A stretch of DNA of 32,000 bases from Candidatus Saccharimonadota bacterium (GTDB lineage Bacteria; Patescibacteriota; Microgenomatia; UBA1406; GWC2-37-13): contig CP065004.1 of the NCBI GenBank assembly GCA_016700135.1, positions 990,001 through 1,022,000 of the forward strand, written 5' to 3'. Of the stretch, positions 545 through 30,183 are shown piece by piece. The stretch's first letter is position 1. Each line of letters starts with the position of its first letter. Under the pieces are notes generated by a model. The model was given only the letters and a program-made list of their open reading frames with translations. It did not search any database and was not told the origin of the DNA. A program made the position numbers and the translations under genes.

Positions 545-560
545 GGCTACAATTTCCCAT

Positions 561-592
561 AAAAAAACCGTCCGTTTTTGTGAAACGGACGG
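561..592 (-). terminator. Intrinsic terminator downstream of rplL
   Basis: A perfect 10-bp stem, CCGTCCGTTT (568-577) with AAACGGACGG (583-592), has a 5-nt loop. On the minus strand it is followed by a T7 run (567..561). Confidence 0.7.
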
Positions 593-724
593 CTGGTCTT
601 GTCATGCTGAATCTGTCACCAAGAAGGTGAGTTTCAACATTCTTTATTTGTCAGTTCCTGATACCTTATTGATCACTTCGTGACAAGTTCAGGATGACAA
701 GAGGAATAGTTACTATCCCTCTTG

Positions 725-1138
725 TCATTTAAGTTCAACAGTTGCGCCTGCGGCTTCAAGTTTTGCTTTTGCTGCTTCGGCTTCTTCCTTTTTGACATCT
801 GTCAAAAGTTCTGCTGGTGCTGATTCGACCATTTTCTTTGCATCCATAAGTCCGAGATCCTGTTTGATTTCGCGAACTGCTTTAATGACTGCAAGTTTCT
901 GATCTCCTGCTGCTGTTATGACAACGTTGAATGTTGTTTTCTCTTCTGCAGGTGCTGCTTCAGCTGCTCCGGCTGCTGCAGGTGCTGCTGCCATCATAGG
1001 CATAGCTGAGACACCGAATTTTTCTTCAAGATATTTTGCAAGGTCTGCCATTTCGACGACTGTAAGTCCTTCGATACTGTCTGCAATCTTCTGAAGTTTG
1101 TCATTCAATGTTACTTCGTTTTTTGTTTCTTCTGCCAT
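725..1138 (-). CDS. rplL: 50S ribosomal protein L7/L12
   Basis: 137 aa with an N-terminal dimerisation helix, an Ala/Pro-rich hinge ([18 protein letters not shown]) and a C-terminal domain ([11 protein letters not shown]...[10 protein letters not shown]...[14 protein letters not shown]). AGGAGGTG lies upstream. Confidence 0.97.
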
Positions 1139-3331: not shown

Positions 3332-4093
3332 TCATATGACGTCCCTACGATGACTTGTTGCTGAAAGTGCATTGAAATGCGTTTCGAACCGGTGAGGGTT
3401 TGTTTCTACCCAATCCGGAAACTCGGTCATGGCATCATTATGAGGTTTATAAAGGTAGATTCTGTTCGTTTCAGTATATTGATCCAGGTCGGGAGCACGA
3501 TCTACCAGAATCGTAGCAATTCCCGCCTCTTGTAATACTTCATTGATTACCGCATTATCAAAGCGCGGAAATTGCCGTGATGAGTGTACAATTCCTATCC
3601 CACCCGGCTGAAGCGAGCGATATGCTTCTGAAAACCATCGGATCGGATCATCGGACCACTCCGCTACCCTACTTGCGAGAAAAAGCGATACGGATTCTGT
3701 TCCAATCCCGTCTTCCATAAAGAAACCATTTCTGTATTCAAACGGTATCGTCGGAAATCTCGTTTGCATGAACTCTTCAGTCAGTCTGAAATCAGGAGGA
3801 GTGACAACATTCGTTCCTAAATACAACTGAGGCAGCCGACTATACTGGGCATAGAGGTTAAAAAGAGGAATTGCTTCAGCCCCTGTCCCGATTCCGACAT
3901 TCAAAACGGTATATGGAGAGGCTTTTGCATAAAGTCTATGCGAAAGTATATCCGGAGCGTAGGAACCAAAGTCGTTCCTTTCGTTCATATATAAAGCATC
4001 CCGTAAATGGTATGACCCGTTTATTTTCGTACAAGCTTGGTATAGACTGGATTCCCAGAGGGCAAACGGATTTTCTGCTGTTGAATGAGGCAT
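3332..4093 (-). CDS. Class I SAM-dependent methyltransferase-like protein
   Basis: 253 aa with a motif I-like VLNVGIGTGAEA and a post-motif LQPGGIGIV. There is no closer family recognition. Confidence 0.5.
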   Translation of the reverse strand: MPHSTAENPFALWESSLYQACTKINGSYHLRDALYMNERNDFGSYAPDILSHRLYAKASPYTVLNVGIGTGAEAIPLFNLYAQYSRLPQLYLGTNVVTPPDFRLTEEFMQTRFPTIPFEYRNGFFMEDGIGTESVSLFLASRVAEWSDDPIRWFSEAYRSLQPGGIGIVHSSRQFPRFDNAVINEVLQEAGIATILVDRAPDLDQYTETNRIYLYKPHNDAMTEFPDWVETNPHRFETHFNALSATSHRRDVI

Positions 4094-20293: not shown

Positions 20294-20379
20294 TGAGATT
20301 GCGAAAAAAAACGGATACCAGTTTATAAAATACGGCAAGAAGCGAACGGTTATTAAGAAGGGGTTTTCGGTAAGATGTG

Positions 20380-20452
20380 TCGGGACGACTGGACTTGAAC
20401 CAGCGACCTCACGGTCCCGAACCGTGTGTTCTACCATCTGAACTACGTCCCG
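20380..20452 (-). tRNA. tRNA-Pro (anticodon CGG)
   Basis: Hand-folded 73-nt cloverleaf: acceptor CGGGACG/CGTCCCG, D arm GTTC-AGATGGTA-GAAC, anticodon arm CACGG-TTCGGGA-CCGTG (CGG with G37), variable loop AGGTC, T arm GCTGG-TTCAAGT-CCAGT, discriminator A. CCA is not encoded. Confidence 0.9.
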
Positions 20453-23857: not shown

Positions 23858-24778
23858 ATGAAAGAGCTCAGAAGGTTACTGCTGAACGGTATGAAAGAAC
23901 GGAGTGATCATTCTGGGTTGGTTTTTCCCGCGATGGCAGAAAGGCAGTTTGCCATTAATCGGAAAATAGCTTCAATTGTAAATCCGTCCCCCACTCACCA
24001 CCTTCTTGATATCTGTTCTGGCGCGATGGGATTGTACGATTCTGTTGAGTGTGCCTATACCGGTATGGATATTTCCCATTTATCTCTCGAAGCTCATCCG
24101 TCCGACTACGTCGTGCAGGCTGATGCAGCATCTCTACCGTTTGGGGACGATCTTTTTGATCATGCTGCTTGTGTAATGGCTTTGCACAGTTCATTTTCTA
24201 CTGCACAAACCATAGGGGAAGTATCCCGAGTCCTGAAGAGGGGCGGTGAATTTACGTTGGCGGAAAACGGAATTTCTCAGTGGATATGTAATTTGATCCT
24301 GTTAGGAAGTGATTTCGGAAAGGTTTTAAGCGAAAAAGAATATATTATGGCAGAGTCTTTTTTCAAAGAACGCACTATTGATCCGGAAGAGTACGTTGAG
24401 CTCACTTCACAGGACCTTTTCGGACAATCAGCCCGGAGATTATTTGCCGATGTGCAAATCCCTGAAAGTATCTCGAAGAAGCAAAGGCATTCTCTGAGGT
24501 ATTCCATGGTTCGTGCGATGAATGAAGCCTTTCATCGGAATGTCGAAAGTCACATTGGTCAAAACGGGCTGGTTCCGTTAAGAAAATCAATTATCCCTGT
24601 TTATGGGGATAAAGAAATATGGTCGGTCGCAGATCCGATCCCATTGGATCCGGAGATCTACACAGCTGAACAGTACCGAAAGCTCAATGAAGAGGGTTTA
24701 GATGGTGTTCCGACGCCTGCCGATCTCCGAACTGCCTCAATCCTCTATCTTTTTGTAGATACATACAGGAAGACGTAA
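23858..24778 (+). CDS. Class I SAM-dependent methyltransferase with an uncharacterised ~150-aa C-terminal region
   Basis: Motif I-like LLDICSGAMG, plus YTGMDIS, ASLPFGDDLFDHAACVMALH and LKRGGEF. The C-terminal half has no recognisable motif. Confidence 0.6.
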   Translation: MKELRRLLLNGMKERSDHSGLVFPAMAERQFAINRKIASIVNPSPTHHLLDICSGAMGLYDSVECAYTGMDISHLSLEAHPSDYVVQADAASLPFGDDLFDHAACVMALHSSFSTAQTIGEVSRVLKRGGEFTLAENGISQWICNLILLGSDFGKVLSEKEYIMAESFFKERTIDPEEYVELTSQDLFGQSARRLFADVQIPESISKKQRHSLRYSMVRAMNEAFHRNVESHIGQNGLVPLRKSIIPVYGDKEIWSVADPIPLDPEIYTAEQYRKLNEEGLDGVPTPADLRTASILYLFVDTYRKT

Positions 24779-24857
24779 TCCCTTCTTACGTTGCTTTCAT
24801 CTAAAAAGAAGATAATAAGATATCTTCTGACAAGTGTGTATTATAATTAAGTTTCTT

Positions 24858-26126
24858 ATGTCATTTAAGGACTCAGGTTCTTCTCCATTGGATGATCAGT
24901 GTATTGCAGCCGGAAATCCAGAAAAGAAGATAGTATTTTATACGATTCCCGAACATCCACTTAGCGGAGCGGGTTCAAATGGCCTAACTCCCCTTTCTGA
25001 AAAGCTTGTTCAGTTTACTTCATATGAACGGGATGTATGGTTTCTTGATCCGGTATCGACGGGTCTTGCATCGGTTTCTCCCCAAGAGTTTGCCGAGTAC
25101 TACATTCCCTCGACACCGTCTGCCGAACTTGAACGTGCCTTGCTCTACGCCGGAAATGAAACATTTGACGAATTGCATGAATATACCTGGGAGCGTATTC
25201 AGCAGATGTTTGCAGGCATCGGCGTTGAAAATTATCAGCACCATTTTCCCAATATCCAGAAAGCATTTGGTATCGTGGAAGAACTTATGAAGACAATGCC
25301 TCGCAGACGAACAGGTGAACCTTCAGTCGCGCATATCTATCGCAATGTACTGCGGATAATTGAGTTTATTGAAGGTTATAATGAGATTTATACATCACGC
25401 GATGAATCTCCGATTTTTACTCCCGAAATTGCTGAATTTTATGTCTGTGCCTCTGCAATGCATGATTTTTTGGAGGACTATTCCGAAATACCCGGTATCG
25501 GTTACCAACGGGGACGCTGTGAAGAAGTGCGGAAAACCGAGTTTGAACAGTGGGGTCAGGGTGCACATTTTTATCGGGCCATCACTCCGGATCTCCAATC
25601 TCAGCAGGAGGACAAAATACAGGAGATAACGCTTGATTTCGGGGAATATGAAAACGATATGTTTGTCTCAACTTTACTTGCTCTCAAAAGTGATAACGTA
25701 GAAGCCGGTCAATTGATGGATCATCTGGAAGGGACTGTCGGTGAGCTCCAGGGAAGATATGATCAGAGAATCATACAAAATCAGCTGTATTCCGTGGCGG
25801 CATATGTCATCAAGTGCTGCGACAGATTGGACAACAATGCCACCTATCTTTACTCCAGAGCACCTTCAGGTGAGTTGATTGCCACTCATGCAGGAAGAGT
25901 GTACAACAAGGCCTCGGAAAATCTGATTCTCTTCAATCATGTTCTTGATGTGTTGAAACGTATTGCAGGTCATGAAAACCTCTCCACAGATGAAATTGCC
26001 CGTCTGAAACCGTTCTATCTGAAGTACGATCCTACCCGCTGGTCCAAACTGGTGCTCGCCGGTGCTCCACTCAATACAATCTATCATCCGAATGAAAAAG
26101 GAAAAGGGATTGCAAAAATCCTCTAA
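24858..26126 (+). CDS. Divergent RelA/SpoT-type HD-domain protein (small-alarmone-hydrolase-like core with long N- and C-terminal extensions)
   Basis: RRRTGEPSVAHIYRNV matches the RxSGEPYxxHP region. MHDFLEDY matches LHDxxEDT. IKCCDRLDNNATYL matches KLADRLHNMRTL of RSH hydrolase domains. Start set at MSFKD, with TATAAT 10 nt upstream. Confidence 0.6.
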   Translation: MSFKDSGSSPLDDQCIAAGNPEKKIVFYTIPEHPLSGAGSNGLTPLSEKLVQFTSYERDVWFLDPVSTGLASVSPQEFAEYYIPSTPSAELERALLYAGNETFDELHEYTWERIQQMFAGIGVENYQHHFPNIQKAFGIVEELMKTMPRRRTGEPSVAHIYRNVLRIIEFIEGYNEIYTSRDESPIFTPEIAEFYVCASAMHDFLEDYSEIPGIGYQRGRCEEVRKTEFEQWGQGAHFYRAITPDLQSQQEDKIQEITLDFGEYENDMFVSTLLALKSDNVEAGQLMDHLEGTVGELQGRYDQRIIQNQLYSVAAYVIKCCDRLDNNATYLYSRAPSGELIATHAGRVYNKASENLILFNHVLDVLKRIAGHENLSTDEIARLKPFYLKYDPTRWSKLVLAGAPLNTIYHPNEKGKGIAKIL

Positions 26127-26162
26127 TATGTAAGAAATTCTGCATACTGAGCTCAATTCTAT

Positions 26163-26201
26163 TTGACTTTCTTACCTAATATTAACAAAATATGATAAAA
26201 T
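26163..26201 (+). promoter_or_regulatory. Putative promoter for the leader transcript
   Basis: Two candidate arrangements. TTGACT (26163-26168) is followed by a 17-nt spacer and CAAAAT (26186-26191). Alternatively, TAAAAT (26196-26201) lies 8 nt before the leader ATG. Confidence 0.3.
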
Positions 26202-26209
26202 AAACTTTT

Positions 26210-26284
26210 ATGGACATATCAAATCATCAAATTTCAACCCTTCGATTCGTTGCCCTTATGTATGGGGGGTTGGCGCGTTGGTGA
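26210..26284 (+). CDS. 24-codon leader ORF (MDISNHQISTLRFVALMYGGLARW) upstream of the synthetase-like gene
   Basis: Hand-translated ATG..TGA frame, too short for the ORF track. Its 3' third contains the 5' strand of a predicted antiterminator helix. Confidence 0.35.
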   Translation: MDISNHQISTLRFVALMYGGLARW

Positions 26285-26309
26285 TTTACAGTTACTAACA
26301 ACAAAAGCC

Positions 26310-26334
26310 AACCGCCAAAGAGGCGGTTTTTTTT
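26310..26334 (+). terminator. Intrinsic terminator ending 10 nt before the start codon of the downstream gene (attenuator terminator)
   Basis: Stem AACCGCC (26310-26316) pairs with GGCGGTT (26322-26328) around the loop AAAGA. The T run extends to 26334, giving 8 T in total. Confidence 0.65.
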
Positions 26335-26344
26335 CACAAAGTGT

Positions 26345-27730
26345 ATGTCAGAACATTCGAAACAATATTCAACAATTGACATGATCGACTTTAACAAAGT
26401 CGAATTGTCCCAAGAACTTTTGGGAAGCTATTCTCCTTTAGCTTTACGCGTTTATGAACGCGGAAGAAGGGGTCATCAACGATTGCATAATCCGACACAT
26501 GCACCTTTTGATGAAATGTCTGTTCAAATTCCTGCTCATAAGTATATCGAGAGAATGAATCGTGAAATGTTTGAATACATTTGTGATGTATACGATGTTA
26601 CGCCGGATCGTGCTGAAGATATCCTCTTTAATGCATTCAGCGATGCAAACCGTTTAGTCACGAGTACTCTTGCACATGCTTTACCTGAGGAGCATGCAAC
26701 ATCATTCGGATTACGGAATGAGGTTTTATCATTCGTGGCGGATGAACCCGGTGACCGTATCTGGCAGATGGCGCATCAGGCACGTGATGATCGGGAAGAA
26801 TTTCAGTTATTCCAGCAACTGCAGTTGGCTCATCCTTTGATAGATCTCCATGCAAGCTATCCGCAGAGACGCGTGAAGGGTCTGCTCTATCGCATGCAGG
26901 GACTTCTGAATGAAGATTTGTACAACGGAGAAAGTCATAAAGGTAATGATGATCTGCATTTTGCGACATGGCACAATCCTGAGGATAATGCGTTTTTAGG
27001 ATATGATCCTGTTATCGGCGGAGTACCGCTTTTTCACAACGTATCTGCAAGAAGGCTAAAAGACGGCAATAACAGTATTCATATTATGACTAATTTCCGT
27101 GAAAAGGATCCGCATACTGCAATGGGTAAGTTGTTAGCCAAAACACTAATGAACGGTGATCCGGTCCTTGATATGCACCGTCATGTACAGGATCTGGCAG
27201 GATTGAGATTGACTGTTCTCGGCGGGACCAGGGAGCGGGACATGGTCTATCAGAGAGTCCTGGATGTGTTGAATGAACGAATGATCAAGCAGGCCAGAGA
27301 GCCGTTATCTTCCTCGAAGCTGCATATTGCTGACATTGAAGATGATTGCCACATTGACGGCCGCTCGAAAAACGGACATATTGACTGGAGACGCAGCAAA
27401 GTATGGCTCATAGATCCTTCAAAAGGGACAATAATGAGACAGCCCATTGAGCTGGTTGTTGATGATTACGGGCTGCTCATGAACGGAAGCTACTATATCG
27501 GAGATAAAAATGATCCGAGACTTCCTGAAGCTCATCTTGAGTTTGAAAGAAAACGTGCGCAGAATCCTTTATTCGGGTTTCTCTTTCCCACTGATGTATA
27601 CAGATCTGCTTATGAATCTATCGACATTGAAGGGGAAATGGCAAAGAAACGCGATGAAAACCGACGCGCATTGAGAATACATCCTGAGGCTCCTCAGGAA
27701 TTAGTTCTGGGAGACGGTATTGTTTGGTAA
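26345..27730 (+). CDS. Divergent RelA/SpoT synthetase-fold (nucleotidyltransferase) protein with a ~240-aa unknown N-terminal region
   Basis: FREKDPHTAMGKLLAK matches GRVKxxxSxxxKxxRK. VQDLAGLRLTV matches xQDIAGLRIxx. NGHIDW matches xGYRSxH. PIELVVDD occupies the position of EIQIRT, with the Glu kept and the Gln and Arg replaced. Confidence 0.55.
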   Translation: MSEHSKQYSTIDMIDFNKVELSQELLGSYSPLALRVYERGRRGHQRLHNPTHAPFDEMSVQIPAHKYIERMNREMFEYICDVYDVTPDRAEDILFNAFSDANRLVTSTLAHALPEEHATSFGLRNEVLSFVADEPGDRIWQMAHQARDDREEFQLFQQLQLAHPLIDLHASYPQRRVKGLLYRMQGLLNEDLYNGESHKGNDDLHFATWHNPEDNAFLGYDPVIGGVPLFHNVSARRLKDGNNSIHIMTNFREKDPHTAMGKLLAKTLMNGDPVLDMHRHVQDLAGLRLTVLGGTRERDMVYQRVLDVLNERMIKQAREPLSSSKLHIADIEDDCHIDGRSKNGHIDWRRSKVWLIDPSKGTIMRQPIELVVDDYGLLMNGSYYIGDKNDPRLPEAHLEFERKRAQNPLFGFLFPTDVYRSAYESIDIEGEMAKKRDENRRALRIHPEAPQELVLGDGIVW

Positions 27731-28663
27731 GGACTTTAATTCGTCGGCGATTGCTTTACTGATACTGACTTCCTGCATTTTTTCAAAACGATATTCTTCT
27801 TTGAGAGCGATCGTATCTGTCGTAAAGAATGCCTGAAGCGGTGAGTTTTGCAGTTTTTCCGCTGTTCCTTCTGCAAAATCCCGATGGACAATTGCGGCAA
27901 TGACGCTGGTGGCTCCCTGTTCCAGGGCAAATTCTGCGGCGTGGATGAGAGTACGTCCCGATGTTGCGACGTCGTCAACGATAATCGCAGTCTTGTCTTT
28001 TACGTCTCCGTAGAGATTCAGCGCTTTACTTTCATGCATATGCTGAAGATCACGTTTCTTTTCCGTGACGGCAAGATTGAAATCAGAATGTCCGAACAAC
28101 ACTTCCCCGAATTTTCGTGCCCGTTCGATTCCCCCCTGATCCGGAGAGATGACGGCTACGTGCTCGGGATCTGCCTGGATGTTGTTTACCTGAAGGTATT
28201 TATGAATTTCTTCGGCAAGTACGGGAAATGCGGAAATATTTTTAAACGGAATATCAAATACTCCTTCAGTTGCCTCATCATGCAGATTGACAGTGTAGAC
28301 TTTGTGGATCCCGATAGATTCAAGGAACCGGATAATAACATTTGCCGAAACACATTCTCCGGGACGATGCTGGATATCCTGTCTGGCATACCCGAAATAT
28401 GGGATCATTGCAATAACACGTCTTGCCTCTTCCCGTCTCAGAGCATCAGCCATAAGAAATAGTTCCATGAGATTTGAATTGGTGGGGTTCGATGTCGACT
28501 GGATAATAACACAGGTATCATTTTTGACGTCTTCTTCCACGCGTACCCGCACCTCTGAATTCTCAAACTGTACAACTTCAACTTTTGCTAGCGATTGGTT
28601 GAGCCCATTTGCAACTTGTTCTGATAAGGGTTGATTTGATGTACCGGAAAAGAGTTTGAGCAT
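27701..28663 (-). CDS. prs: Ribose-phosphate pyrophosphokinase (PRPP synthetase)
   Basis: Carries MLKLFSGTSNQPL, MIPYFGYARQD and the PRPP-binding loop AIIVDDVATSGRTL. Start set at MLKLF, because the longer track ORF translates an intergenic repeat. Confidence 0.93.
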   Translation of the reverse strand: MLKLFSGTSNQPLSEQVANGLNQSLAKVEVVQFENSEVRVRVEEDVKNDTCVIIQSTSNPTNSNLMELFLMADALRREEARRVIAMIPYFGYARQDIQHRPGECVSANVIIRFLESIGIHKVYTVNLHDEATEGVFDIPFKNISAFPVLAEEIHKYLQVNNIQADPEHVAVISPDQGGIERARKFGEVLFGHSDFNLAVTEKKRDLQHMHESKALNLYGDVKDKTAIIVDDVATSGRTLIHAAEFALEQGATSVIAAIVHRDFAEGTAEKLQNSPLQAFFTTDTIALKEEYRFEKMQEVSISKAIADELKSLPNNTVSQN

Positions 28664-28670
28664 GGTCGTT

Positions 28671-28770
28671 AGGTTGTAGCTGGTAGGCCCGCCGTTTGGC
28701 GGAGTTGGCTGTAGGTTATTGGTAATTCCAGTAATCATTCATACCGGCTACCAGCTACCACCTACGCCTT
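28671..28770. repeat. Intergenic hairpin repeat, copy A (MITE/REP-like)
   Basis: About 100 nt. The terminal arms AGGTTGTAGCTGGTAGGC and GCCGGCTACCAGCTACCACCT pair in 16 of 18 positions. By hand alignment it is about 85 percent identical to copy B. Confidence 0.8.
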
Positions 28771-28776
28771 GAGATC

Positions 28777-29031
28777 TTACTGATTCATTTCCATGAGCTT
28801 GCGTGCTGCAAGTTCCTGTGTTTTTTTGACGGCATCATTGATTGCTTCGGCAACACGGTTTTCCATAACGCCGTCTATTTCGACATTAAGAATTTTCTGG
28901 TCTCCCCGCATTGTAATGGTGACACCGTTTTTTTCGACCGTTACTTCTTCTTTCTGAAGGGCTTCCTGCATTTTCTTGGCCTGTTGTTGTAATTGCTGCA
29001 GATTTCCGAGTCCTTTAAGTGGGTTAAACAT
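28777..29031 (-). CDS. ybaB: YbaB/EbfC-family nucleoid-associated protein
   Basis: 84 aa with N-terminal GNLQQLQQQAKKMQEALQK and a core V..NGVTITMRGDQKILNVEID, typical of the family. It sits next to dnaX, as in many bacteria. Confidence 0.88.
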   Translation of the reverse strand: MFNPLKGLGNLQQLQQQAKKMQEALQKEEVTVEKNGVTITMRGDQKILNVEIDGVMENRVAEAINDAVKKTQELAARKLMEMNQ

Positions 29032-29040
29032 AGTAAATTT

Positions 29041-29140
29041 ACGTGTAGCTGGTAGATCCGCCGACGGGCGAAGTAGGCTGTAGGTTAATGATAATTCCAG
29101 TAATGATGATTACCGGCTACCAGCTACCACCTACCGCCTT
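29041..29140. repeat. Intergenic hairpin repeat, copy B
   Basis: Same architecture as copy A: GTAGCTGGTAG ... CTACCAGCTAC arms, an internal small GC hairpin and a shared TAATTCCAGTAAT core. Its right end abuts the dnaX stop codon. Confidence 0.8.
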
Positions 29141-30183
29141 TATGATTTATTTCGACTATTATAAAATTCTACCACAACGAGTTCAAGGGGGAGAGCTTCG
29201 ATCGGAGATATTCTGATTCCGTTATATGCCTCGTGCAGCAGTTTGATAAGCATCGAAATTTCCCTCATGGTATAGATGAGTTCCGTCTCGGTTGATTTCC
29301 CGGTGCTTTTTGCAAGAAGTAGGATATGCAGGACGCTAAGCATATCTTCAATTGCACGTTTGACATTTCCGCCTGACTGGATAAAATCGTCAACCCACTG
29401 CATACTTTCGGCAAGTGTCCCCTTTTGCATAATTTCCAGAAGTGTTCCTTTTGCCCGGACGCCAAGATATTCCTGTGCAGCCTCAAGAGTCAAAGTATCC
29501 TGCATCACAAGCTCTTCAAACATTTTTGCGGCATCTCTGAAGGAGTTTTCGCTATATGTAGCAATAAGATTTTTCAGTTCTGCGGGAATTGTAACGGTTT
29601 CCTTTTCTGCAATCCGATCAAGCATGTGAATAATGTCCTTTTTATGTGCCCGACCGAAAGGAATTCGTACACACCGTGAGATGATCGTATTCGGAAGCTT
29701 TTCTTCATTTGTTGTGGCCAGTATAAAGATAACAGTTTCAGGAGGTTCTTCCAGGGTTTTTAGGAGTGCATTGAAAGCGTCGGGAGTGATCATGTGGGCT
29801 TCATCGATGATATAGACACGGTATCTTCCGGTCATCGGAGCATAAGATGATTCCCGAATGAGCTTTCTGACTTCTTCAATACCTCGGTTTGATGCCGCGT
29901 CCTGTTCGACCACATCAGGTGAGCTTCCGTTTTCAATCGTAGTACAGTTGTTGCAGCTGTTGCAGGGTTCATACGATGTTCCTTTTCCCGCAAACTTGTT
30001 CTCCAAACAGTTGACTGCTTTTGCAACGATGCGGGCAGTTGAGGTTTTGCCCATTCCTTTCGGACCGATAAATAGCAGGGCATGAGGTAAATCTTTTGCG
30101 GATAGAAGATTTGTTATTTTCGGTCGTACCTGTGAGTTGTCGAGTTCTGTGATAGTTCGCGGTCGGTATTTGAGATAAAACAT
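29140..30183 (-). CDS. dnaX: DNA polymerase III subunit gamma/tau (short, gamma-like form)
   Basis: Carries YRPRTITELD, the Walker A GPKGMGKTSTAR, a Zn module CNSCNNC, DEAHM and the sensor SRC. At 347 aa it lacks tau-specific C-terminal domains. Confidence 0.93.
   Translation of the reverse strand: MFYLKYRPRTITELDNSQVRPKITNLLSAKDLPHALLFIGPKGMGKTSTARIVAKAVNCLENKFAGKGTSYEPCNSCNNCTTIENGSSPDVVEQDAASNRGIEEVRKLIRESSYAPMTGRYRVYIIDEAHMITPDAFNALLKTLEEPPETVIFILATTNEEKLPNTIISRCVRIPFGRAHKKDIIHMLDRIAEKETVTIPAELKNLIATYSENSFRDAAKMFEELVMQDTLTLEAAQEYLGVRAKGTLLEIMQKGTLAESMQWVDDFIQSGGNVKRAIEDMLSVLHILLLAKSTGKSTETELIYTMREISMLIKLLHEAYNGIRISPIEALPLELVVVEFYNSRNKS

Follow-up and report, generated by a model that had tools for sequence, protein, structure and literature searches.

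The amino-acid leaders of the Escherichia coli trp, his, leu, thr and ilv operons carry a short promoter-proximal open reading frame (ORF) and four RNA segments with mutually exclusive 1:2, 2:3 and 3:4 pairings, the last of which is an intrinsic terminator located before the structural gene. Transcription of these leaders terminates by default when they are not translated, and segment 2 becomes available when a ribosome stalls over segment 1. For vmlR of Bacillus subtilis, an anti-antiterminator/antiterminator/terminator design driven by an upstream ORF (uORF) was demonstrated experimentally (PMC9226507). The uORF of vmlR and of related ABCF leaders lies inside an anti-antiterminator hairpin overlapping an antiterminator and an intrinsic terminator, and vmlR is induced by ribosome stalling, not by a specific amino acid; its terminator region also affects translation initiation of the main ORF (PMC9226507). 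In this study, we analyzed a 32,000-nt stretch of contig CP065004.1 (positions 990,001 to 1,022,000, GenBank assembly GCA_016700135.1), hereafter named the window, and found a putative leader of this kind in a 218-nt spacer (26127-26344) between a 430-amino-acid (aa) ORF (24834-26126) and a 461-aa ORF (26345-27730). Its elements, their mutual exclusivity, their conservation and their covariation were detected in silico, and on balance the spacer element is probably a ribosome-mediated leader-ORF transcription attenuator composed of an anti-antiterminator, an antiterminator and a terminator. Default termination without translation, release of segment 2 by a stalled ribosome, induction by stalling as such and an effect on initiation at the main ORF are all proposed here as well. 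By analogy, vmlR is the closest worked example of this general-stalling logic.

Elements of the putative attenuator

The original prediction, based on the letters of the window, had placed a 24-codon ORF and an intrinsic terminator in the spacer. The coordinates and sequences of spacer, ORF and terminator all agreed with the window sequence. The elements and the two flanking genes are as follows.

26163-26168, + strand: -35 hexamer TTGACT (promoter scan)
26186-26191, + strand: -10 hexamer CAAAAT (promoter scan), giving a sigma-70-type promoter TTGACT-17-CAAAAT
26193-26201, + strand: second, extended -10-like element TGATAAAAT, seen in the sequence and ending 8 nt before the ATG of the small ORF
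26210-26284, + strand: leader ORF of 24 codons plus UGA, encoding MDISNHQISTLRFVALMYGGLARW (ORF list)
26221-26230, + strand: 5' strand of the outer helix of the anti-antiterminator (1:2), AAATCATCAA, codons 4-7 (minimum-free-energy fold)
26234-26244, + strand: segment 1, 5' strand of the inner helix, TCAACCCTTCG, codons 9-12 (minimum-free-energy fold)
26263-26274, + strand: segment 2, comprising the 3' strand of the inner helix (26263-26273) and the 5' strand of the antiterminator, GGGGGTTGGC (26265-26274), codons 18-22
26278-26287, + strand: 3' strand of the outer helix of the anti-antiterminator, TTGGTGATTT, last sense codon and UGA (minimum-free-energy fold)
26277-26299, + strand: apical extension of the antiterminator, GTTGGTGATT (26277-26286) with AGTTACTAAC (26290-26299) (constrained folds)
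26307-26316, + strand: segment 3, GCCAACCGCC, pairing with segment 2 or, via 26310-26316, with segment 4
26310-26334, + strand: intrinsic terminator, AACCGCC (26310-26316), loop AAAGA and GGCGGTT (26322-26328) (terminator scan and fold)
26345-27730, + strand: gated gene, encoding a 461-aa protein predicted to fold like a small alarmone synthetase, without Shine-Dalgarno (SD) site
24834-26126, + strand: upstream neighbor, 430-aa protein with SpoT/Rel hydrolase-like invariant motifs, outside the attenuator

The sigma-70-type promoter at 26163-26191 had been missed by the original prediction. Its -35 hexamer is invariant as TTGAC[T/A], followed by a 17-nt spacer, in every relative with upstream DNA available, and the -10 hexamer of the relatives reads TAAAAT, TACAAT, TATACT or TACACT. 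The leader ORF starts 18 nt past the -10 hexamer of the window, between the promoter and the structural gene. From this arrangement we infer a transcription start at about 26198 and an A/U-rich 5' untranslated region (UTR) of 11-13 nt without SD site. The extended element at 26193-26201 is retained as TGnTAnnAT in the relatives L002, L003 and L006, and L020 carries TAGAAT 8 nt 5' of its ATG; transcription governed by this element, if it occurs, would give an almost leaderless leader mRNA.

The minimum-free-energy fold of 26198-26337 comprises a two-part 21-bp hairpin and the terminator (-35.2 kcal/mol, z = -2.5 against shuffles). The 1:2 pairing had been described as CAACCC (26235-26240) with GGGTTG (26267-26272); these 6 bp are present at both positions, but the element is larger, since they belong to the 21-bp two-part hairpin that includes the stop codon. 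The predicted duplex between segments 2 and 3 was recovered in 9 of 10 positions, with one G.G mismatch, as was the overlap of segment 3 with the 5' arm of the terminator at 26310-26316, for which GGCGGTT (26322-26328) is the alternative partner. In constrained folds the antiterminator is a long hairpin, because the 3' strand of the outer helix, once released (26277-26286), finds a second partner in the linker (26290-26299). Overall it sets 26265-26299 against 26290-26316, as an alternative to the 1:2 hairpin, and analogous extensions were found in L004 and L013.

The stem of the terminator is 7 bp long and rich in G+C; its T run counts 8 residues (26327-26334), of which the first two still belong to the stem. 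Only 10 nt, CACAAAGTGT, separate the end of the T run from the ATG at 26345, and both the sequence and the promoter scan bear out the claim that no promoter follows it. Judged from the sequence, there is no room between terminator and ATG for a promoter belonging to the 461-aa gene itself.

Conservation of the leader in distant relatives

Relatives were found by homology searches and contig look-ups, and ten distinct leaders that are complete, plus one that is truncated, formed the comparison set. For the 461-aa protein, identity is 80-98% in close relatives (L001/L009, L002, L003 and L006, with 98% for L006) and 24-38% in distant ones (L004/L005, L010-12, L013-15, L016, L019, L020 and L022); L007 shares 33%. 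The leader layout recurs in nine further distinct leaders upstream of orthologs, with adjacent-protein identity down to about 24%. The conserved unit starts with a TTGAC[T/A]-17-TAnAAT-like promoter and an ATG 12-18 nt after the -10 hexamer, continues with a hairpin that begins near codon 4 and reaches the stop codon and with a G-poor linker, and ends with a terminator that is rich in G+C and carries 5 T or more; the distance between the T run and the next start codon is 0-10 nt. Spacing is also kept, with 41-47 nt from the -35 hexamer to the leader ATG and an ORF of 21-25 codons. In every lineage the stop codon is located in or beside the 3' strand of the outer helix, and the leader AUG region is unpaired in all folds. 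In L013-L015 (region 3767-3993 in L013), the T run abuts the ATG of an extra 94-aa ORF located 7 nt before the ortholog; the switch therefore gates a two-gene operon there.

Conservation of the ORF and of the alternative pairings in relatives had been set as a test that could refute the attenuation reading; both were found to be conserved, and the reading survived. For the antiterminator, we searched for the best upstream duplex partner of each terminator 5' arm plus 5 nt and compared it with shuffles. The best partner in the window is segment 2, at -18.0 kcal/mol, a value reached by 0.6% of dinucleotide shuffles. The strongest partner of every leader lies at nt 50-76 from the AUG (mostly 50-71), in the 3' part of the ORF, with 2:3 duplex energies of -13 to -18 kcal/mol that 0-2.6% of shuffles match. 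Segment 2 follows the terminator of its own lineage: GGgGGTTGGC pairs with GCCAACCGCC in the window, GGGaGGGTG with CACCCGCCC in L004 (with a mismatch at the same place as in the window), AGCGGGG with CCCCGCT in L013, and GGGCGGCA with TGCCGCCT in L016. The terminator stems likewise covary by lineage (CCGCCCT/AGGGCGG, CCCGCTT/AAGCGGG and GCCTCG/CGAGGC).

A covariance model built from five window-group sequences only returned the divergent leaders as its top non-self matches, with scores of 48.7 bits for L020 (E = 2e-9), 35.5 bits for L013 (8e-6), 30.6 for L019 and 28.5 for L010; L004 (21.7 bits) and L022 (18.8 bits) scored lower. Close relatives alone carry almost no covariation (1 double change), and divergent loci were therefore needed. 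In the model-aligned set of seven sequences (alignment A8), the share of cells that are paired is 86%, compared with 73% after shuffling, and in 12 pairs both partners have changed. A8 had a covariation score of 0.342, compared with 0.172 for shuffles, with 0 of 500 shuffles reaching it and slid-partner controls at 0.107 or below. Because alignments A7 and A8 misplace segment 2 of divergent leaders, the 2:3 pairing was not counted on them and was tested by duplex against shuffle as described above.

Predicted response of the fold to ribosome position

The ribosome was modeled as a 27-nt footprint mask in a partition-function calculation, with equilibrium folding serving as no more than a proxy for a kinetic decision. 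In the window leader, the probability of the terminator, P(terminator), is 0.94 without ribosome. It drops to 0.24-0.28 when the P-site is placed at codons 11-14 and is 0.87 or higher for P-site positions from codon 15 to the last codon. The last value supports the idea that a ribosome masking segment 2 lets the terminator form. That an early stall frees the antiterminator also held for codons 11-14 of the window, but the trend is uneven among leaders. It was the same in L004 (0.11 at codon 11) and in L013 (0.02-0.11 at codons 8-12). Without ribosome, the OFF state of the window leader is favored by 5.4 kcal/mol, and that of four other leaders by 2.7-11.7 kcal/mol; a footprint at codon 11 moves the OFF/ON balance of the window to -1.4 kcal/mol.

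An open frame with a drifting peptide

Frame 0 is free of stops in 10/10 complete leaders, and the other two frames contain 1-3 stops in nearly all of them. Dinucleotide-shuffled leaders yielded a comparable ORF (ATG within 4 nt of the observed start, 18-30 codons) in 2-4% of trials. In L013 and L020 the register of the ORF relative to the hairpin is shifted by 1-2 nt, and the frame is nonetheless open. The leader sequences of distant lineages have largely turned over, and the repeated retention of the ORF therefore points to selection on an open frame. For this region, being translated, rather than the peptide sequence, appears to be what counts.

An SD core precedes 2/31 long ORFs of the window, against a random background of 12%, and a -10-like hexamer is found 4-12 nt before the start of 10/31, against 13%; these fractions are approximate, as ORF starts were assigned mechanically. 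Examples of TATAAT located 5/6 nt before an ATG are found at 4093(-), 10632(+) and 19153(-). SD-independent, short-leader or leaderless initiation looks like the norm in this genome, and the pattern suggests that leaderless or very-short-leader mRNAs are widespread in this Roizmanbacterium. Since the genome hardly uses SD sites, their absence before the small ORF and the 461-aa gene is no argument against translation.

The ends of the peptides were surveyed in the window, L001-L004, L010, L013, L016, L019, L020 and L022. Nearly all leader peptides carry Cys or Trp (UGU, UGC, UGG) directly or one residue before the stop codon, and most carry His at position 6-8, whose CAC/CAU codon pairs with GUG/AUG...UGU in the outer helix. 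This pairing does not fully explain why Cys/Trp and His are retained over free covariation in divergent leaders.

Proposed mechanism and alternative explanations

In the mechanism that we propose, the start site, translation of the ORF, termination in vivo and the signal are inferred. Transcription would begin at the conserved sigma-70-type promoter (26163-26191), and the nascent RNA would bear the 24-codon ORF, either SD-less or nearly leaderless. With no ribosome, or with a ribosome at the UGA, the 1:2 hairpin would form or segment 2 would be masked; segment 3 would then pair with segment 4, and RNA polymerase would terminate at the T run (26327-26334), 10 nt before the ATG. A ribosome stalled or slow at about codons 8-14 would cover segment 1 and the outer 5' strand and leave segment 2 free. 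Segment 2 and the released outer 3' strand could then pair with segment 3 and the linker, blocking the terminator, and polymerase would enter the alarmone-synthetase-like gene, whose start codon would also be left single-stranded. The sensed signal is most likely general translation stress (amino-acid shortage, translation inhibitors) and not one amino acid, because conservation of the peptide is poor and no single codon is repeated in a run.

Several observations weigh against this proposal. The peptide drifts: about 10 non-synonymous changes and 1 synonymous change separate L010 from L019. As the original prediction had noted, it has no run of one regulatory amino acid, with no codon repeated and none in tandem, and no residue of codons 8-14 is conserved across lineages; the logic of trp-type attenuation, which had been invoked, thus holds without its run of regulatory codons. 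What conservation there is concerns the RNA. His7 and the C-terminal Cys/Trp codons are mutual pairing partners in the outer helix, a W-to-C change at the last residue in close relatives is half of a double change from U.G to A-U in that helix, and the CAYAUU motif conserved where the two helices meet falls out of frame in L013 and L020. Because the seemingly conserved residues pair and CAYAUU goes out of frame, the constraint lies on the RNA and not on the peptide. In the folding model, L003 and L010 respond weakly to masking, and L001 and L002 favor the antiterminator even without ribosome (P(terminator) of 0.54 and 0.06), although default termination would be favored even there, because the 1:2 hairpin (-24 kcal/mol) is completed before segment 3. 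The covariation alignment was fitted to the structure of the model, and hence leans towards that structure, and the independent lineages number only about 6-8. Finally, L017 (2930-3000) is rearranged, with a plain TTGACT-17-TATAAT promoter and neither leader ORF nor terminator, so that the leader is common but not universal in the family.

The same three-state RNA switch could instead be operated by something other than a ribosome that stabilizes or melts the 1:2 hairpin, with the ORF untranslated or irrelevant. Candidates are the SAS-like (small alarmone synthetase-like) or HD-like gene product (autoregulation), an alarmone or other small ligand, and a different RNA. The clear constraint at the RNA level, with helices that covary while the peptide drifts, would fit such an actuator, and the unpaired CAYAUU at the junction, out of frame in L013/L020, resembles a binding site. 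The ORF has no SD site either, but this is the rule in the genome. Such an actuator leaves unexplained the ATG at a fixed distance from the -10 hexamer and the open frame of 21-25 codons in 10/10 leaders despite sequence turnover, with stops accumulating in the other two frames only. The apical part of the hairpin varies in sequence and length, unlike a ligand pocket, and an Rfam 15 scan of 25000-28000 at E <= 10 returned noise only, with no riboswitch or leader family matched and the best family at 26.4 bits against a gathering threshold of 51.4, all matches being below the gathering thresholds. We therefore regard a non-ribosomal actuator as rather unlikely. A classical amino-acid-specific attenuator, in which the Ile/Leu/Val-rich center of the peptide (codons ~8-17) would report the charging of branched-chain tRNAs as in the ilv and leu leaders, seems to us unlikelier still. 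The predicted stall window (codons 8-14) is indeed rich in I/L/V/F in all lineages, for example ISTLRFV, IIALTQI, IVAQYFA and TFLIVWP. This composition may merely reflect U-rich RNA pairing with a G-rich strand, identical codons do not occur in tandem, no codon is conserved across lineages, and the gated gene is not an amino-acid biosynthetic one. To our knowledge, CPR (Candidate Phyla Radiation) genomes generally lack amino-acid biosynthesis pathways, which also counts against it.

There could also be no regulation at all, if a stand-alone small-protein or small-RNA gene simply ended in a terminator, with the 461-aa gene living on constitutive leak-through and the 2:3 complementarity arising as a side effect of stems rich in G and in C. 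Terminators always leak to some extent, and many small membrane proteins resemble these peptides in being short and hydrophobic. However, their sequence is not conserved, the 2:3 pairing beats composition-preserving shuffles in every leader and always at the same place, and in all lineages a distance of 0-10 nt separates the terminator from the start codon that follows, which locks the two units together. This explanation is very improbable, and ribosome-mediated attenuation is the reading that we retain.

The gated gene and its upstream neighbor

Neither flanking protein matched a Pfam, PHROGs, NCBIfam or PADLOC profile, and for the 461-aa protein there was no Pfam or NCBIfam match to the RelA_SpoT synthetase domain even at E <= 10. 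PDB sequence searches with single sequences and with profiles gave nothing relevant for the 461-aa or the 430-aa protein. An exhaustive search identified 85 relatives of the 461-aa protein. Its AlphaFold model, computed from a 28-sequence alignment, had a predicted local distance difference test score (pLDDT) of 83.5 and a predicted template-modeling score (pTM) of 0.84; with a 5-sequence alignment the pLDDT was 39 and the model unusable. In a Foldseek search against the PDB, the top 28 matches were all small alarmone synthetases (SAS; RelQ, RelP, FaRel2), with a probability of up to 0.99. E-values were only about 1e-2, and the global TM-score (template-modeling score) was low because the match covers one domain of the protein. 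The invariant residues of the family, R252(near)-x-K254-x7-K262 ... D283 ... E369, are spaced like the synthetase residues of RelSeq, R241-x-K243-x7-K251 ... D264 ... E323 (PMC13299517). The label of the gene as synthetase-like, given in the original prediction, thus finds support in the SAS matches and in invariant residues spaced as in RelSeq, which point to an alarmone-synthetase-like protein at the level of predicted fold and motif.

Invariant residues of the 430-aa family are R158-x8-H167, H210-D211-x2-E214-D215 and D330-R331-x-D333-N334. The (p)ppGpp-hydrolase site of RelSeq comprises R44-x8-H53, H77-D78 and D144-x3-N148 (PMC13299517). Its spacing is reproduced by the invariant residues of the 430-aa protein. 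We take the E81/D82 pair of RelSeq to be part of the same comparison. The two flanking proteins were also considered as paralogs, and this was rejected, since comparison showed that they are not paralogous. The 430-aa gene is absent in L004, L013 and L022. The 430-aa protein is probably a functional partner of the attenuator, and with the gated gene downstream the two look like a split hydrolase and synthetase pair.

A more far-reaching possibility, which we put forward tentatively and consider doubtful, is that a trigger of the stringent response is wired in cis, a stand-alone synthetase-like enzyme being switched on by ribosome stalling on its own leader ORF. If so, the locus would be a split RSH (RelA/SpoT homolog) with an attenuator between its halves and the upstream SpoT-hydrolase-like gene transcribed separately. 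An RNA switch, and not a ribosome-bound protein, would convert stalling into alarmone synthesis, with a synthetase-like enzyme devoid of the ribosome-sensing domains of RelA, in CPR bacteria with minimal genomes.

The 461-aa gene (+) and the PRPP-synthetase (phosphoribosyl pyrophosphate synthetase) gene at 27701-28738(-) are convergent, and their 3' ends overlap by 30 nt (27701-27730). No terminator lies in between, and this tight arrangement is kept in all syntenic loci.

Genomic context

The window also carries genes for RNase J, RecR, a methyltransferase, PRPP synthetase, YbaB and DnaX as housekeeping neighbors, and syntenic loci share the order RNase J, RecR, ..., gated gene, convergent prs, ybaB, dnaX. 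The 461-aa protein is a 100% match to a hypothetical protein assigned to Candidatus Roizmanbacteria, and a megablast search of 24000-30000 gave no match in phage records. The window is a bacterial chromosome. Gene content and the contexts of start codons agree with a CPR genome. Its only tRNA gene is tRNA-Pro(CGG), at 20379-20452(-).

A search of the window found no further copy of the leader, and a weak match at 560-646(-) is an ordinary gene-end terminator. There, at 566-594(-), a strong canonical intrinsic terminator with a 12-bp stem followed by a T run lies 3' of the gene at 725-1138(-) and stands before a promoter and a GyrB-like gene. It has the same design as the leader terminator, which indicates that hairpin-plus-T-run terminators serve ordinary gene ends in this genome.

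Comparison with known systems

Almost nothing is known about gene regulation in CPR bacteria, which cannot be grown alone. Our literature searches turned up neither a leader-peptide attenuator described in CPR nor an alarmone-synthetase gene under attenuator control, although coverage was limited and this absence is weak evidence. The leader represents a new RNA family, one that Rfam does not contain. Its score against Trp_leader (RF00513) was 16.9 bits, with a gathering threshold of 41 and E = 6, and there is no sequence or covariance-model likeness to that family. If confirmed, it would be a clear comparative-genomics case of textbook attenuation in CPR, with SD-less, near-leaderless translation. 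Two core genes annotated as hypothetical are now flagged as a likely alarmone synthetase and hydrolase pair, with expression apparently tied to ribosome status, which offers a testable entry point to starvation sensing in ultra-small symbionts. What is unusual about this textbook mechanism is its phylum, its SD-less leader and its target gene.

Unlike the classical amino-acid leaders, that of the window has no run of cognate codons, a run that marks the amino-acid-operon subclass and not the stall-sensing subclass. It also differs from them in that the ORF or the hairpin encloses segments 1 and 2 as well as the stop codon, that there is no SD site and a very short or absent 5' UTR, and that the gated gene is not biosynthetic. 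On the side of the gated product, RelQ/SAS1, RelP/SAS2, FaRel2 and the synthetase domain of Rel/SpoT resemble the 461-aa protein in its predicted fold and motif spacing; unlike SAS proteins, it carries about 200 additional aa that form a helical N-terminal half. The uORF of vmlR has 3 codons and an SD site, and senses antibiotics that stall initiation (PMC9226507). In contrast, the ORF of the leaders described here has 21-25 codons and no SD site, with a predicted stall window in mid-ORF, and the target of the switch is an alarmone-synthetase-like enzyme where that of vmlR-type leaders is an ABCF or resistance factor.

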